Shown piece after piece: positions 1,037-49,075 of a stretch of 64,000 nt of DNA (position 1 is the first letter of the stretch; every line of letters starts with the position of its first letter). The DNA comes from Leptospira biflexa. GTDB taxonomy: Bacteria; Spirochaetota; UBA4802; UB4802. Under the pieces are notes generated by a model. That model was given only the letters and a program-made list of their open reading frames with translations, ran no database searches and was not told where the DNA came from. Location: positions 11,314 through 75,313 of the forward strand of contig DYLU01000002.1 of the NCBI GenBank assembly GCA_020721905.1. Direction: 5' to 3'. The position numbers were made by a program, and so were the translations under genes.

Positions 1037-3112
1037 ATGGCAGATTCAAAAGATAGCCCCCAGTTTATCAGAAAACGGGATGGCAGGATAGTTCCTTTTA
1101 ATATTGAAAAGATTACAGAAGCAATATTCAAGGCTGCCCGTGCTGTTGGCGGCACTGACAGAAATACTGCAGCTCAAATTGCTAAATCAGTGGTTGATAT
1201 ATTGTCTTTATTATATAAAGGCGAGCATATTCCAACAGTTGAAAATGTTCAGGATTTAGTTGAAAAGATGCTCATAGAAAAAGGGCATGCAAAAGTTGCA
1301 AAAGCCTACATTCTGTACCGTGAACAGCACCGTAAAATACGTGAAGCGAAAAGCCTTTTCAGTGAAGGTATTCAGCTTATTGAAGATTACCTTGACAGAT
1401 CAGACTGGCGTGTAAACGAAAACAGCAATATGAGTTATTCTTTGCAGGGTTTAAACAATCATATTGCATCTGCAGTAACAGCTAAATACTGGCTTGAACG
1501 AATTTATCCTCCCGAAATCAGAGATGCACATGTTAATTGTGATCTTCATTTACATGATTTAGGATTGCTTTCTGCATACTGCGTTGGCTGGGATTTGCGC
1601 GACCTTTTGCTGAGCGGGTTTGGTGGTGTCCCCGGCAAAGTTGAAAGTAAACCTGCAAAACATTTCAGAAGTGCACTGGGACAGATAGTTAATTTTTTCT
1701 ATACCCTGCAGGGTGAATCGGCAGGTGCTCAAGCCTTTGCAAACTTTGATACGTATCTGGCTCCATTCATACGTTACGATAACTTAGATTATGCTGGCGT
1801 AAAACAGTGCCTGCAGGAATTTATTTTCAATATGAATATACCTACCCGTGTAGGATTCCAAACACCATTTACCAATATCACACTTGACCTTACTGTTCCC
1901 CGTTCTATAGCTGATGAACATGTTATCATTGGGGGACAATTCATGGTTGAGACATACGCACAGTTTCAAAAAGAAATGGATATCTTCAATACCGCCTTTG
2001 CTGAATGCATGCTTGAAGGTGATGCTCGCCACAGAATATTCACATTCCCCATACCCACATACAATATCACCAAAGATTTTGACTGGGAAAATCCTGCAAT
2101 AAACCTGCTATGGGAAATTACTGCTAAATATGGTATACCCTATTTTGCAAACTTTGTCAATTCTGACATGGATCCGGATGATGCACGTTCCATGTGCTGC
2201 CGTCTGCGACTTGATAACAGGGAACTACGCAAACGGGGTGGAGGTCTGTTTGGTGCAAATCCACTAACCGGAAGTATTGGTGTAGTAACCATTAATATGC
2301 CGCGTCTTGGATACCTTTCCAAAACAAAAGATGAATTTTTTGACAATCTTGCTCATTTAATGGATTTAGCTCGAAATTCATTGGAAATTAAACGTAAAGT
2401 TCTGGAAAACTTTACTGCTAATAATCTTTATCCTTATACTAGGGTTTATTTACGTGATGTATATCAACGATTCCAAAAATACTGGGTTAATCATTTCTCA
2501 ACTATTGGCCTTGTTGGGATGAACGAAGCCTGCCTTAATCTTTTAGGTCAGGACATAACAACTGAAGAAGGGAAAGAGTTCACTGCTCAGGTACTGGATT
2601 TTATGCGTGATAAAATTACCACCTATCAGCATGAAACGGGTAATTTATATAATCTGGAAGCAACACCTGCTGAGGGAGTAAGTTACCGCTTTGCGCGCCA
2701 TGATAAAAACAAATTCCCGGACATCATAACATCCGGTAAAAATGAGCCATATTATACCAACTCTATTCATCCACCGGTAGGATTTGCTCATGATATATTT
2801 GATTTGCTGGATCACCAGGATCAACTGCAGACAAAATTCACCGGGGGCACGGTAGTTCATTGCTTTTTAGGTGAAAAGATTGATGATCCGCAGATGGTTA
2901 AACTTCTGGTTAAAACCATTGCTTTTAACTACCATATACCATATTTTACCATTACGCCAACGTTCAGTATTTGTCCTGTTCATGGGTATATTCCGGGCAA
3001 TCATAAATTTTGTCCTTATGAGCATACAAAAGAAGAACTTGAGATGTTTGGCATAGATGTCGAAATTGAAGATAAAAAGCCATTGCAGATTGAAACACAG
3101 ATACAGCAGTAA
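1037..3112 (+). CDS. nrdD: anaerobic ribonucleoside-triphosphate reductase (class III RNR) large subunit, lacking the glycyl-radical tail
   Basis: N-terminal ATP-cone (FIRKRDGRIVPFNIEKITEAIFKA). Typical NrdD body motifs. C-terminal metal-site region ICPVHGYIPGNHKFCPYEH. Ends at TAA 3110-3112 before any RxxGY glycyl-radical motif. SD ggag upstream of ATG. Confidence 0.9.
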   Translation: MADSKDSPQFIRKRDGRIVPFNIEKITEAIFKAARAVGGTDRNTAAQIAKSVVDILSLLYKGEHIPTVENVQDLVEKMLIEKGHAKVAKAYILYREQHRKIREAKSLFSEGIQLIEDYLDRSDWRVNENSNMSYSLQGLNNHIASAVTAKYWLERIYPPEIRDAHVNCDLHLHDLGLLSAYCVGWDLRDLLLSGFGGVPGKVESKPAKHFRSALGQIVNFFYTLQGESAGAQAFANFDTYLAPFIRYDNLDYAGVKQCLQEFIFNMNIPTRVGFQTPFTNITLDLTVPRSIADEHVIIGGQFMVETYAQFQKEMDIFNTAFAECMLEGDARHRIFTFPIPTYNITKDFDWENPAINLLWEITAKYGIPYFANFVNSDMDPDDARSMCCRLRLDNRELRKRGGGLFGANPLTGSIGVVTINMPRLGYLSKTKDEFFDNLAHLMDLARNSLEIKRKVLENFTANNLYPYTRVYLRDVYQRFQKYWVNHFSTIGLVGMNEACLNLLGQDITTEEGKEFTAQVLDFMRDKITTYQHETGNLYNLEATPAEGVSYRFARHDKNKFPDIITSGKNEPYYTNSIHPPVGFAHDIFDLLDHQDQLQTKFTGGTVVHCFLGEKIDDPQMVKLLVKTIAFNYHIPYFTITPTFSICPVHGYIPGNHKFCPYEHTKEELEMFGIDVEIEDKKPLQIETQIQQ

Positions 3113-3154
3113 GAAATTTATAATTTTGTTACTATATTAAACGGGGGTTACATA

Positions 3155-3346
3155 ATGCAAAAGCACCACGAAAAAAAAATACCTGTTGAAGTATATTCAA
3201 GGGTTGTTGGGTATTTCAGACCAGTTAACCAATGGAATAAAGGAAAACAGGAAGAATTTCAAGAAAGAAAAGAGTTTATGAAAGATGAATTATTTAAGGT
3301 AGCCACACATGAATATTCGGGGTATTCAAAAAACCTCACTCATTGA
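3155..3346 (+). CDS. stand-alone glycyl-radical module of NrdD (63 aa), in-frame with nrdD after a TAA stop
   Basis: Translation VYSRVVGYFRPVNQWNKGKQEEFQERKEF matches the conserved NrdD C-terminal glycyl-radical motif (SRVxGY...NxGKQxE). Own SD gggggt 7 nt upstream of ATG 3155. Same reading frame as nrdD, with 14 codons including TAA between them. Overlaps the nrdG start by 38 nt. Confidence 0.6.
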   Translation: MQKHHEKKIPVEVYSRVVGYFRPVNQWNKGKQEEFQERKEFMKDELFKVATHEYSGYSKNLTH

Positions 3347-4004
3347 CTTTCCGCAGGTTATTAGCACTGTCCTTTTTACCGGTGGATGCAATTTACGCTG
3401 TCTTTACTGCCATAATGCATCATTGGCGTGCAATGACTGTAATTTGCAACAATATTCAAACCATGAGGTGCTGGAATTTTTACATAAACGAAAGCACCTT
3501 ATTGGTGGTGTTGTCATTACCGGTGGTGAACCAACACTTGCAAAGGGTATAATTCCCTTTTTAGAAAAGGTAAAAGAAACAGGATTAAAAGTAAAATTGG
3601 ACACTAATGGATTTCAGCCTCAGGTGTTAAAAAAAATACTGTCACAAAGGCTTGTTGACTACATAGCAATAGATATTAAAACATCACCAGAAAAATATCC
3701 AGTATTGACAAGAACAAAACTTTCATTTGATTTAATCATGAAATCTATTGCACTGCTCAAAGAACACCACGTAACATTTGAACTCAGGACAACCTGTGTA
3801 CCAGGGTTTGTAACCATTGAAGATTTTCAAGGTATAAAAGAGCGTGTGGGTAATGTTATGTATTATTATCTGCAGCAATTTGATAACCAGCACACACTGG
3901 ATGAATCGCTTCGCACAGTTAAACCTTACCCTAAAGATGTTTTATATTCATTCCAGCAGTTTGTAAAAACATTTGCTACCATTTGTGAAATTCGGGGATT
4001 ATAA
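3309..4004 (+). CDS. nrdG: anaerobic ribonucleotide reductase activating protein (radical SAM)
   Basis: CNLRCLYCHN radical-SAM cysteine motif near the N-terminus. GGEPTL SAM-binding motif. Immediately downstream of nrdD. Confidence 0.85.
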   Translation: MNIRGIQKTSLIDFPQVISTVLFTGGCNLRCLYCHNASLACNDCNLQQYSNHEVLEFLHKRKHLIGGVVITGGEPTLAKGIIPFLEKVKETGLKVKLDTNGFQPQVLKKILSQRLVDYIAIDIKTSPEKYPVLTRTKLSFDLIMKSIALLKEHHVTFELRTTCVPGFVTIEDFQGIKERVGNVMYYYLQQFDNQHTLDESLRTVKPYPKDVLYSFQQFVKTFATICEIRGL

Positions 4005-41081: not shown

Positions 41082-43100
41082 TTACACCTTTACCGCTTGT
41101 TGCAGATTAGCTATGGCTAAAAATGCTTCATGAATAGCATCATTTATTTTTCCTATCTTTTTACAATCGCCAATGACCGTATGCGAAATACCAGCTTTGT
41201 GCAATTCATTCCCCAGTGGATTAACTGATCTAGAGCCCACTGCAATAACCACATTATCAAATTCATGTGTTACAAAATCGTTATCCTTTGAAAAAACTAC
41301 TGCTTTATCAGTAATCTCAGTGACCCTTGCAGAAGTAATCACATTAACTCCAAATTTTTCCAATTCCAATTTCATTATCCATTTTGTTGATCTGCCAACA
41401 TCCTTCCCAATAGCAGGAAGCATCTCAATTATGGTAACATTACTTGTGCCTTGTGTCATAAATCCCTTCAATCGTTCTACAGGTTCTGCATCAAACAACA
41501 TCAAAAAATGCAGTGCTTCAGGAGACAATGTACCCTTATTTGCAATAAACAGTGCTGTTTCTATACCTACAGCACCTCCGCCTATCACCGCAACATTACG
41601 TCCTAATTTTGGATTATCACGCAAAATGTCCCAGGCTGAATATACATGATGCTGATGTATGCCCTTAATTGGTGGCATTATTGGCTCTGCACCTGTTGCC
41701 ACTATAACATGGTCAGGCTTGCTATTGCGTATTAAATCCATTGTTACCGTTGTATTTAGATGCACGGGGATATCATATTCCTCAATCATTGCTTTATAAT
41801 AACGGATAATTTCAAGAAGCTCATGTTTATGTGGAGGTGCAGCTGCGATTTCAAGCTGACCGCCAATTTCATGTTCTTTTTCATAAATTTCTACTTCATA
41901 CCCTGCCTCTTTTGCCCGTACTGCTGCTTCAAGCCCGGCAGGTCCAGCACCCACAACCATAATCTTCAATGGATGTGAAGTTTTTGCAATAGAACGTTCA
42001 AACTCATACCCTGCACGCGCGTTCAAAATACATCCTACCGGCATGCCACTGAACAATGTATCAGTACAACCCTGATTACAACCCACGCAAGGCCGTATCA
42101 ATTTTACTTTGCCCTGCATAGCTTTCCTGGGCCAGTATGGATCAGCAATCAGTACTCTTCCCAGGTTTACCATGTCTGCCATGCTGTCGCGCAGTATTTT
42201 TTCAGCTTCATCAGGTGAGCTTATTCTGTTGGACGCCATAACCGGCACGCTCACTGCTTTTTTAATAGTAGCAGCTAAATATGCATATCCTGCCCGTGGT
42301 AATTCCATAGGAAGCTGAGGAACCTTGGCTTCATGCCATCCACCAGTAACATTAATGATATCCACACCTGCTTCTTCATATACCCTGGCAAACAAAGGTG
42401 TTTCTTTGCTTGTGTTGCTTCCCGGAACAAAATCATTGCCCGCCATCCGTATGCTGATTGGAAAATCCTTCCCCACTGCCTGGCGCACCTTTTCAATCAC
42501 CTCTCTGGGGAAGCGTGTCCTGTTTTCAAATGATCCGCCGTATTTGTCTGTTCGTTTATTTGTTATGGGCGATAGAAACTGTGTAATGAGATATCCTGCC
42601 GATGCAATAATCTCAACGCCATCAAAGCCAGCTTCCTTTACACGCAGCGCAGCATCAACGAAAGCTTTCTGGACCATCTCAATATCTTCTAACGACATTT
42701 CCCTGGGTGTCTGTTTTGAGTAATTTGAATACACCGCTGAAGGGGCAATAGGCTGTACACCATCTGTCATCATTGAATAAGAATAAGCCCCTGCATGGAA
42801 CAATTGTACAAATGTTCGGGCACCTTCATTTTTTATTATCTGTGCTAATTTTGCAAAATCAGGAATCCTGTCATCTGATGCCAGCGATAAGGCAATCCTG
42901 CCTGAACCTACAATATCTATCCCTACCGGCCCCACAGTAACAAGGCCAGCGCCACCTTTTGCTTTTTCTTTGAAATATTCATAGTACCTATCATTCAAAG
43001 TACCATCGTATGAATACAATAATCCTAAAGAAGGATAAGCAATCCTGTTTTTGATTTCCAATGTATTGATGGTTATTGGTGTGAAAAGTAGTTGATACAT
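41082..43100 (-). CDS. fadH: 2,4-dienoyl-CoA reductase-like NADH:flavin oxidoreductase (OYE TIM-barrel plus FAD/NAD(P) domain, 672 aa)
   Basis: OYE-like N-terminus. 4Fe-4S Cys motif RPCVGCNQGC. Rossmann GxGxxG motifs (VVGAGPAGLEAA). Same length and architecture as E. coli FadH. Confidence 0.8.
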   Translation of the reverse strand: MYQLLFTPITINTLEIKNRIAYPSLGLLYSYDGTLNDRYYEYFKEKAKGGAGLVTVGPVGIDIVGSGRIALSLASDDRIPDFAKLAQIIKNEGARTFVQLFHAGAYSYSMMTDGVQPIAPSAVYSNYSKQTPREMSLEDIEMVQKAFVDAALRVKEAGFDGVEIIASAGYLITQFLSPITNKRTDKYGGSFENRTRFPREVIEKVRQAVGKDFPISIRMAGNDFVPGSNTSKETPLFARVYEEAGVDIINVTGGWHEAKVPQLPMELPRAGYAYLAATIKKAVSVPVMASNRISSPDEAEKILRDSMADMVNLGRVLIADPYWPRKAMQGKVKLIRPCVGCNQGCTDTLFSGMPVGCILNARAGYEFERSIAKTSHPLKIMVVGAGPAGLEAAVRAKEAGYEVEIYEKEHEIGGQLEIAAAPPHKHELLEIIRYYKAMIEEYDIPVHLNTTVTMDLIRNSKPDHVIVATGAEPIMPPIKGIHQHHVYSAWDILRDNPKLGRNVAVIGGGAVGIETALFIANKGTLSPEALHFLMLFDAEPVERLKGFMTQGTSNVTIIEMLPAIGKDVGRSTKWIMKLELEKFGVNVITSARVTEITDKAVVFSKDNDFVTHEFDNVVIAVGSRSVNPLGNELHKAGISHTVIGDCKKIGKINDAIHEAFLAIANLQQAVKV

Positions 43101-47254: not shown

Positions 47255-49075
47255 ATGAAAATTAGCAAATTCCTTTTTGCAACGTATATCTTCATTATAT
47301 TCATGATTTTTCCCACATTTTATGGATTCGCTGATACTACCATTGCAATCCATCTTGATCAGGAAATATTAAATGTAAAACCAAATACAAAAGCCTGTGC
47401 TATTGTACACATAGATTTGCCCACAAAAGGCTATATCTATGCCAACCCCAAAGGTGAGGGAACCGGAAAAGCAACAACCGCTAATGCAAAAGCAACCCAA
47501 CATATAGTACCAGGAAAAACGCGCTATCTTCCCGGAACCTTTTATATTTCACCTCTTGATAGCAAACCGGTGTATATTTATAAAAAGCACACCTCGCTCT
47601 GTATTCCATTCACAATAAATACAGCACAAGAAGGCTCATATTCTTTATCATTCATAATTGAGGCTTTATATTGCAATGATGTATCCTGCACCCCCGTACT
47701 GCAAACTGTTACCCAGATAATTAACGTTGATAAATCAGCACCTGATTTTGATACATCATTATGCACCACATATAAAGAGCCTGACGATATAATTCACACA
47801 GTAAATAAAGAAGACACGTCCGGTCATTTTAATATAATAGATGCAGGTGGTAGCTCAACACTGAGTTTGTTTCATGCAATCATTTTTGGAATTCTTGCAG
47901 GCTTTTTACTCAACTTTATGCCCTGTGTACTTCCTGTAATAAGCCTTAAAATTTTAAGTTTTATATCATATGGCAACAACAAACCAGGGAAGGTAAGGAT
48001 AATGGGATTGCTGTTTACCGCAGGGATATTAACATCTTTCTTGGCACTGGCTTCGCTTGCAGCATTTGCCGGTTATAACTGGGGTGAGCTTTTTCAACAT
48101 AAAATTTTTATTATTATCATGGCAGCCATAATTTTTGCACTGGCTTTATCGTTTTTTGGTGTGTATACATTCAATATTCCACAGCTCTCACTATTGCAAA
48201 GTGCCAATGTCTATTTAGATTCATATTTCAAAGGAATAGTTGCCACACTTCTTGCTACCCCCTGCAGTGGTCCTTTTTTGGGGGCTACACTGGCATGGTC
48301 ATTAACGCAGCATCCTGTAATAATTTTTATAATTTTTATTAACATTGGTCTTGGCATGTCACTTCCATACCTGCTTTTATCATTTTATCCGTCACTTATC
48401 AGATTCATCCCCAAATCCGGAGACTGGATGATAACATTTGAGCAGTTTATGGGATTTTTAATGGTTGCCACCACCATCTACCTTATATCATTACTTGATG
48501 CAGGTACATTGACAACAACTATCTGGTTTTTGTTACTTGTATCCATTGGATTATGGCAATGGGGGCGGTTTGGGAATATAACAAAACCATCAATACAGCG
48601 AATAATTTCATTTGTTGTGCTTGTGCTACTTGTTGTTTCTGCTAGCATGATATTTTCCAGCAAAAAAACATCAAAAGCTGAAATAACCTACAAGCCTTTT
48701 GACTGGGAGGAGATAGTTCATAACAATACATCACAGGTTTCAATGGTCATTTTTACTGCTGAGTGGTGCCCCAACTGCAAATTCGTTGAGGCTACAGCAT
48801 TATCATCTTCCAGTATTATTGAATTCATATATAAAAATAATATCTCTGTCTACAAAGCCGATATCACCACAAAGAATCCGCCAGCAGAGAGCATATTACT
48901 ACAACTTGGTTCACGATCGATACCGTTTGTGGCTATCTTCCCTTCAGGAGGTAATTTTTCACAGCCTGTTATACTGCGTGATATTTATACAGCAAAAGAT
49001 TTATTGAAGGCTTTGCAAAAAGCCCTGGAATTGAGTAAACAATCAGAGATCCCTCAACTGATGACTATCCCTTAA
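47255..49075 (+). CDS. dsbD: thiol:disulfide interchange protein DsbD-like (N-terminal periplasmic domain, CcdA-type TM core, C-terminal thioredoxin)
   Basis: TM-core Cys pair (MPCVLPV ... PCSGPF). C-terminal thioredoxin WCPNCK. N-terminal signal peptide. Confidence 0.8.
   Translation: MKISKFLFATYIFIIFMIFPTFYGFADTTIAIHLDQEILNVKPNTKACAIVHIDLPTKGYIYANPKGEGTGKATTANAKATQHIVPGKTRYLPGTFYISPLDSKPVYIYKKHTSLCIPFTINTAQEGSYSLSFIIEALYCNDVSCTPVLQTVTQIINVDKSAPDFDTSLCTTYKEPDDIIHTVNKEDTSGHFNIIDAGGSSTLSLFHAIIFGILAGFLLNFMPCVLPVISLKILSFISYGNNKPGKVRIMGLLFTAGILTSFLALASLAAFAGYNWGELFQHKIFIIIMAAIIFALALSFFGVYTFNIPQLSLLQSANVYLDSYFKGIVATLLATPCSGPFLGATLAWSLTQHPVIIFIIFINIGLGMSLPYLLLSFYPSLIRFIPKSGDWMITFEQFMGFLMVATTIYLISLLDAGTLTTTIWFLLLVSIGLWQWGRFGNITKPSIQRIISFVVLVLLVVSASMIFSSKKTSKAEITYKPFDWEEIVHNNTSQVSMVIFTAEWCPNCKFVEATALSSSSIIEFIYKNNISVYKADITTKNPPAESILLQLGSRSIPFVAIFPSGGNFSQPVILRDIYTAKDLLKALQKALELSKQSEIPQLMTIP

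Follow-up and report, generated by a model that had tools for sequence, protein, structure and literature searches.

A probable two-subunit class III ribonucleotide reductase encoded by a split nrdD locus in a Leptospirales genome

The window analysed here, a stretch of 64,000 nucleotides (64 kb, 37% GC) from contig DYLU01000002.1 of assembly GCA_020721905.1 (Leptospira biflexa), carries the anaerobic (class III) ribonucleotide reductase (RNR) gene nrdD as two separate open reading frames (ORFs). The larger, nrdD-L, encodes the catalytic subunit, and the smaller, nrdD-S, encodes the glycyl-radical domain (GRD) as a protein of 63 amino acids (aa); both are followed by nrdG, the gene of the radical-SAM activase. 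Judged by its conservation and by coding selection on the parts, the split is very probably genuine and functional, with NrdD-L and NrdD-S making up a two-subunit class III enzyme. The split is a trait of a whole lineage of spirochaetes that also occurs in other phyla, and it would make the NrdD radical domain a constitutive, separate subunit. Searches of PMC and bioRxiv turned up neither a split NrdD nor a standalone NrdD glycyl-radical subunit, in agreement with the initial annotation of this DNA, which had supposed such a split to be undescribed for NrdD, and the arrangement is unmentioned in a review of glycyl radical enzymes (GREs; PMC13450708) and in an RNR phylogeny (PMC9531940).

Architecture of the locus

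The features of the locus, all on the forward strand, are as follows.

1037-3112, +, nrdD-L, class III RNR catalytic subunit without a glycyl-radical domain (691 aa, 79 kDa; Pfam, NCBIfam)
2972-3025, +, Zn site C646-x2-H649-x9-C659-x3-H663 of NrdD-L (without variation among the 45 split large subunits of alignment A2)
3026-3109, +, C-terminal tail of NrdD-L, 28 aa (TKEELEMFGIDVEI...; motif EEL..(F/Y)G(I/V)E kept in split lineage A)
3110-3112, +, TAA stop of nrdD-L (sequence; identical in the source-run contig, TAA or TGA in related strains)
3143-3147, +, Shine-Dalgarno sequence GGGGG of nrdD-S, 7 nt upstream of its ATG (sequence)
3155-3346, +, nrdD-S, separate glycyl-radical subunit (63 aa, 7.7 kDa, pI 9.3; starts at ATG 3155)
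3200-3214, +, glycyl-radical motif RVVGY, with the radical glycine G19 at 3209-3211 (alignment A1)
3309-4004, +, nrdG, radical-SAM activase (231 aa; Pfam Radical_SAM; NCBIfam NrdG2 TIGR02495 above cut-off)

NrdD-L consists of an ATP-cone (aa 10-99; Pfam, 2.9e-24) and an NRDD core (aa 128-665; Pfam, 1.2e-181), scores above the cut-off of NCBIfam PRK08270, and has the NrdDs 8P23, 4COI and 1H78 as its nearest solved structures. Its catalytic-core residues are invariant across the 45 split large subunits of alignment A2. The ATP-cone, NRDD barrel, C-terminal Zn site and adjoining nrdG expected of a class III RNR are all present at the locus; the canonical C-terminal motif RxxGY is absent from the whole nrdD-L ORF. 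The Pfam NRDD profile is divided between the two genes, with positions 1-530 of 562 matched by nrdD-L and positions 531-562, the last 32, which make up the C-terminal glycyl-radical segment, matched by nrdD-S.

The protein encoded by nrdD-S reads MQKHHEKKIPVEVYSRVVGYFRPVNQWNKGKQEEFQERKEF... and ends at TGA 3344-3346. It is also matched by the C-terminal glycyl-radical segment of the NCBIfam NrdD models, and its profile matches the GRD of Thermotoga NrdD (4COI residues 612-644). Across 48 homologues (alignment A1), residues E12, Y14, S15, R16, G19, Y20, R22 and P23 are invariant, and about 10-15 residues precede the β-strand and the Gly loop. Standalone homologues in the protein database number 701 (length 34-111 aa), many of them named Spirochaetota; NCBIfam holds no model naming the small subunit. 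The start of nrdG overlaps the end of the nrdD-S ORF by 38 nt, an arrangement likely to couple the translation of the two genes. The initial annotation had described an nrdD ending at TAA 3110-3112 after a Cys/His site and without RxxGY, followed 14 codons on and in the same frame by a 63-aa ORF with its own Shine-Dalgarno sequence and ATG, carrying the NrdD C-terminal glycyl-radical motif and overlapping the nrdG start, and this description was upheld in each part by the ORFs, the sequence and the Pfam matches.

The TAA stop lies 28 aa past the Zn site. In fused NrdDs the fourth Zn ligand is the second Cys of a CPxC motif placed just before the GRD strand, and the ligand sets are CxxC...CxxC or CxxH...CxxC (alignment A3), unlike that of NrdD-L; in the split lineage the fourth ligand is invariably a His (C-x3-H). 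This change is consistent with a metal site that had to be completed inside NrdD-L after the split, and we infer that the His ligand co-evolved with the loss of the C-terminal segment, the site seemingly being completed within NrdD-L.

Conservation of the split and the reading of the stop codon

Relatives were surveyed at increasing distance. In 8 genomes of the same genus and 4 of the same family, the large ORF always ends past the Zn site and the tail, and a separate ORF of 63-67 aa follows 24-371 nt downstream with its own Shine-Dalgarno sequence (GGGGG, GGAGG or AGGGAG) and ATG. A scan of genome contigs recovered the order nrdD-L, GRD ORF (48-69 aa), nrdG in about 50 Spirochaetota/Leptospirales loci, drawn from metagenome-assembled genomes (MAGs) and isolates, and in WOR-3 and TA06 genomes. 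Across the loci the gap between nrdD-L and the small ORF ranges from 0 to 371 nt, a Shine-Dalgarno sequence of GGAGG/GGGGG type is kept ahead of the small ORF, and the last 23-137 nt of the GRD ORF (most commonly 23 or 38 nt) are shared with nrdG. When 301 genomes of the phylum were searched, all those of the window's order had the GRD on a short open frame of 54-137 aa, and in the rest of the phylum it was sometimes fused (frames of about 700-850 aa) and sometimes in frames of about 185 aa.

Nucleotide differences in nrdD-S among the genus relatives are concentrated at third codon positions (first/second/third: 2/0/13 for L005, 10/5/26 for L011), and L005 shows 11 synonymous against 4 nonsynonymous changes, where the synonymous share of possible changes is 17.8%. 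Third-position, mostly synonymous change of this kind marks a protein-coding gene, and, by this pattern, purifying selection acts on nrdD-S as read in its own frame, also where that frame differs from the frame of nrdD-L. Since the GRD motif is invariant and the NrdD-L core is conserved, neither part appears to be decaying.

The source reads and the contigs of related strains bear on the stop itself. The window sequence occurs in the source run only, whose contig matches the window, with no alternative base at the TAA; related-strain contigs from other metagenomes provided information on frame and stop, and RNA runs, which contained small shares that are probably conserved parts of relatives, were not used. 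In related strains the stop is kept as TAA, or as TGA through A3111G, and insertions of 1 nt occur at 3133/3135 within the spacer. This spacer (3113-3154, 42 nt) would encode the peptide EIYNFVTILNGGYI and has no further in-frame stop, so that conceptual readthrough from nrdD-L into nrdD-S yields a product of 770 aa. RNA structure predicted in the spacer, a potential driver of recoding, was no better than that of shuffled sequence (z = 0.21), no terminator was found between nrdD-L and nrdD-S, and repeats near the split were limited to short chance matches. Fragmentation by a mobile element or an intein was considered and rejected: the spacers are variable in length and hold no ORF or endonuclease, and intein motifs were not found.

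The initial annotation had left three options for the interrupted gene (a natural split with a trans-acting glycyl-radical subunit, programmed readthrough of the TAA, and a sequencing error or pseudogene) and had looked to the reads at 3110-3112 and to the relatives for a decision. The last of these, taken as a fault of sequencing or assembly or as an nrdD broken recently in this one genome, would fit what the window shows, in that one TAA interrupts the gene and the reading frame continues unshifted beyond it. With the stop confirmed in the source reads, the genus, family and order relatives uniformly split rather than fused through the same linker, their spacers and stop codons differing, about 50 genomes sharing the arrangement, and purifying selection on both ORFs, this explanation is refuted and has become almost negligible. 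Programmed readthrough, giving a fused NrdD with a long linker, draws on the in-frame position of the small ORF 14 codons past the TAA, and is scarcely more credible. The two frames coincide in the window and in L004-L006 but differ in L007, L008, L009, L010, L016, L017 and the greater part of the order, and they agree in only about one third of the loci, as expected by chance; the window genome gives no sign of TAA recoding, and the Shine-Dalgarno sequence and ATG are kept before the small ORF. Since spacer length and frame vary, and 1-nt insertions occur in related strains, readthrough is refuted for the lineage and cannot be the conserved mechanism. The natural split is the option that the conserved arrangement and the selection on its parts favour.

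Predicted assembly, activation and comparison with known systems

The assembly of the two subunits was modelled by folding the A2 profile (NrdD-L residues 110-691) together with the A1 profile (NrdD-S), producing a predicted complex with an ipSAE of 0.75; of 3 controls, the best reached 0.00. The runs share at least 85% of about 200 contacts, and the partner pLDDT is 64-67. In the model, residues 4-46 of NrdD-S, which surround the Gly loop, contact the Zn-site region (643-659), the barrel (544-615) and the tail (667-677) of NrdD-L, and NrdD-S is placed with confidence at the GRD position of fused NrdDs. Because solved structures of fused NrdDs exist (4COI, 1H78, 8P23), the complex is to be read as a likeness to them, with NrdD-S where a GRD would be expected, and not as proof that the present copy binds.

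On the mechanism that we consider likely, NrdD-S would be translated from its own Shine-Dalgarno sequence and ATG on a transcript shared by nrdD-L, nrdD-S and nrdG, with its synthesis coupled to that of NrdG, and would dock into NrdD-L so that the Gly loop enters the barrel at the site taken by the GRD in fused NrdDs. NrdG would then install the glycyl radical on G19, probably with NrdD-S already bound to NrdD-L, as proposed for YfiD on cleaved PFL, and the radical would pass to the active-site cysteine, with ribonucleotide reduction proceeding as in fused NrdDs. Activation of free NrdD-S in solution, followed by loading into NrdD-L, is the less probable order of events but one with a real chance of being correct; the small size of NrdD-S and the overlap of its ORF with nrdG, which suggests coupled synthesis, speak for it, and the proposal that activation of YfiD by the PFL activase requires prior binding to cleaved PFL (PMC8683613) speaks against it.

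Several points weigh against a functional two-subunit enzyme. The genome to which the window belongs is a MAG, derived from a biofilm metagenome of 2014. The synthesis of NrdD-S is predicted from its ORF, its Shine-Dalgarno sequence and coding selection, and we infer its binding to NrdD-L, its activation by NrdG and the activity of the enzyme. The modelled complex may pass merely through likeness to solved fused NrdDs that have the GRD in place (4COI, 1H7A, 8P23). Although nrdD is the sole class III RNR gene of the genome, a second RNR large subunit is encoded (PF02867, 776 aa; locus L099, G000:C117:18559-19971, - strand), so that essentiality of the split enzyme cannot be argued. Since no class I RNR small subunit was found in the genome, the PF02867 enzyme is probably a class II, B12-dependent RNR.

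The canonical NrdD/NrdG systems (E. coli, phage T4 NrdD 1H78, Thermotoga maritima 4COI, Prevotella copri 8P23) share with the split locus the ATP-cone and NRDD barrel, the C-terminal Zn site, the RxxGY motif and a neighbouring radical-SAM NrdG, and differ from it in that their GRD forms the C-terminal end of the one NrdD chain, whereas here about the last 60 aa form a protein of their own. The closest functional parallel is YfiD (GrcA), a protein of 127 aa in which residues 1-60 are disordered and residues 61-127 have the fold of PFL residues 693-759; it is activated by a radical-SAM activase and provides oxygen-cleaved PFL with a Gly loop in trans (PMC8683613). YfiD and T4 Y06I, both serving PFL, are the only validated spare parts, and such parts are merely possible for other GREs (PMC8683613). 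NrdD-S resembles them as a small, standalone GRD protein acting, by prediction, in trans on a large subunit without a Gly loop, and its Gly loop is homologous to the C-terminal GRD of the parent enzyme. It differs in that YfiD is an optional repair part, PFL having a GRD of its own that stays intact unless oxygen cleaves it, whereas NrdD-S appears obligatory and is encoded in the nrdD operon; and YfiD belongs to the PFL family and has an extra N-terminal region, whereas NrdD-S and its counterparts (48-69 aa) match NrdD models only. A spare part presupposes a parent with an intact GRD of its own, and NrdD-L is without a Gly loop in all relatives; since NrdD-L never carries one, NrdD-S is not a spare part, and the system is, by analogy, like PFL:YfiD in mechanism and not in role. 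The comparison with GrcA/YfiD drawn in the initial annotation held for the supply of a GRD in trans and failed for the spare-part role.

The existence of standalone glycyl-radical spare parts also lends some weight to another explanation, in which NrdD-S would be a vestige, or would serve a different GRE as a spare part of PFL type, and NrdD-L would be inactive or draw on another radical source. This is improbable, if somewhat less so than error or readthrough, given that NrdD-S is of NrdD type and not of PFL type by Pfam, NCBIfam and its match to the Thermotoga GRD, that all loci have it flanked by nrdD-L and nrdG, and that NrdD-L without its own Gly loop would be radical-less in the absence of NrdD-S.

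GREs of more than one polypeptide are known in benzylsuccinate synthase (BssABC) and 4-hydroxyphenylacetate decarboxylase (HpdBC), where the glycyl radical is on the large subunit and the small subunits are accessory; here the radical would be on the small subunit. RNR polypeptides in two pieces also occur through mobile elements and split inteins, one example being an nrdA broken up by a homing-endonuclease element (PMC3045599). Unlike in those cases, the pieces of NrdD are separated by a non-coding spacer of 0-371 nt and are not re-joined.

Oxygen destroys glycyl radical enzymes by cleaving the chain at the radical glycine. No means of providing a GRD in trans is known other than the spare parts of PFL. 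Tentatively, the split of NrdD may make an exchangeable radical cassette, in which oxygen would cleave the backbone at Gly19, the 7.7 kDa NrdD-S alone would be replaced by a copy newly made in coupling with nrdG translation, and the undamaged 79 kDa NrdD-L would be reloaded; such built-in repair would keep the enzyme active and could have been selected several times under intermittent oxygen, as in biofilm or sediment. On that plausible but tentative reading, the use of the same fission point in at least three lineages (types A, B and C, below) would reflect repeated selection of the cassette. If active, the two-subunit enzyme would offer a natural test of swapping the radical piece after oxygen damage and of whether NrdG acts on the free or the bound glycyl-radical peptide, and would show how little of a GRE chain suffices to carry the radical. 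Annotation is affected as well, as pipelines label an nrdD of this kind 'truncated' or overlook the 63-aa gene.

Origins of split forms and genome setting

A tree of large-subunit cores, with the C-terminal region left out, was calculated with IQ-TREE (quick search, SH-aLRT support only). The split forms were not grouped, and an approximately unbiased test rejected a single clade of all of them (ΔlnL 236.5, p 3e-93). Type A comprises a Spirochaetota/Leptospirales clade (support 100) and a WOR-3/TA06 clade (97), and requires two changes. Type B consists of the Thermodesulfobacteriota loci L070 and L073, sister to fused NrdDs of Thermoanaerobacteraceae. Type C, in Spirochaetota family f21 (L096 and L097), is sister (96) to the fused phage NrdD L003. 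On the most economical reading of this sequence tree, fission at one and the same point, past the Zn site and ahead of the GRD strand, would have arisen at least three times; deep placements are uncertain given the quick search and the long branches of phage NrdDs and L098, and horizontal transfer of the locus is possible. The nearest phage NrdDs (Clostridium phages phiCTP1 and FA88, an Oceanotoga phage and a gut phage) are single fused chains in which the Zn site is followed directly by R(I/V)TGY, without a 50-aa insert, and the split is accordingly taken as a derived trait of the host lineage.

The other split forms show features of their own. In L070 and L073, both from MAGs, NrdD-L has a canonical CPKC Zn site and a helical tail, and the GRD subunit of 68-87 aa has a helical N-terminus; the helices are possibly a coiled-coil docking pair. 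In L096 (G176:C19:204700-209800) and L097 (G201:C2:115800-120900), NrdD-L has a canonical CxxH...CPKC Zn site and a helical tail, and the separate small subunit, of about 185 aa, has a glutaredoxin-like CPNC domain after its GRD (TETEVYSRIVGY), with nrdG next. L003 (MT835493, a gut phage scaffold, 2983-5391) encodes a fused NrdD of 802 aa with a glutaredoxin-like CPNC domain after the GRD. In L084-L095 (Desulfuromonadales, Geoalkalibacter, Malonomonas), L072 and L074, the NrdDs end about 10 aa past an unusual CPHxH Zn site, and no RxxGY motif was found within 1.2 kb downstream.

The window comes from contig C6, and the genome (3.04 Mb, 95% complete) has uncultured Spirochaetota (Leptospirales, Leptospiraceae) as its nearest relatives. 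The region is ordinary chromosome and not prophage, with MnmE, YidC, PPDK, LeuRS, CLC, DsbD and IMPDH encoded on it. At 41082-43100 (- strand) lies a gene for a 672-aa fusion of an NADH:flavin oxidoreductase (Old Yellow Enzyme family) with a pyridine-nucleotide-disulphide oxidoreductase, on which a weak PHROG match to 'RNR large subunit' is probably spurious. At 47255-49075 (+ strand), a DsbD-like protein with DsbD_TM and thioredoxin domains is encoded.

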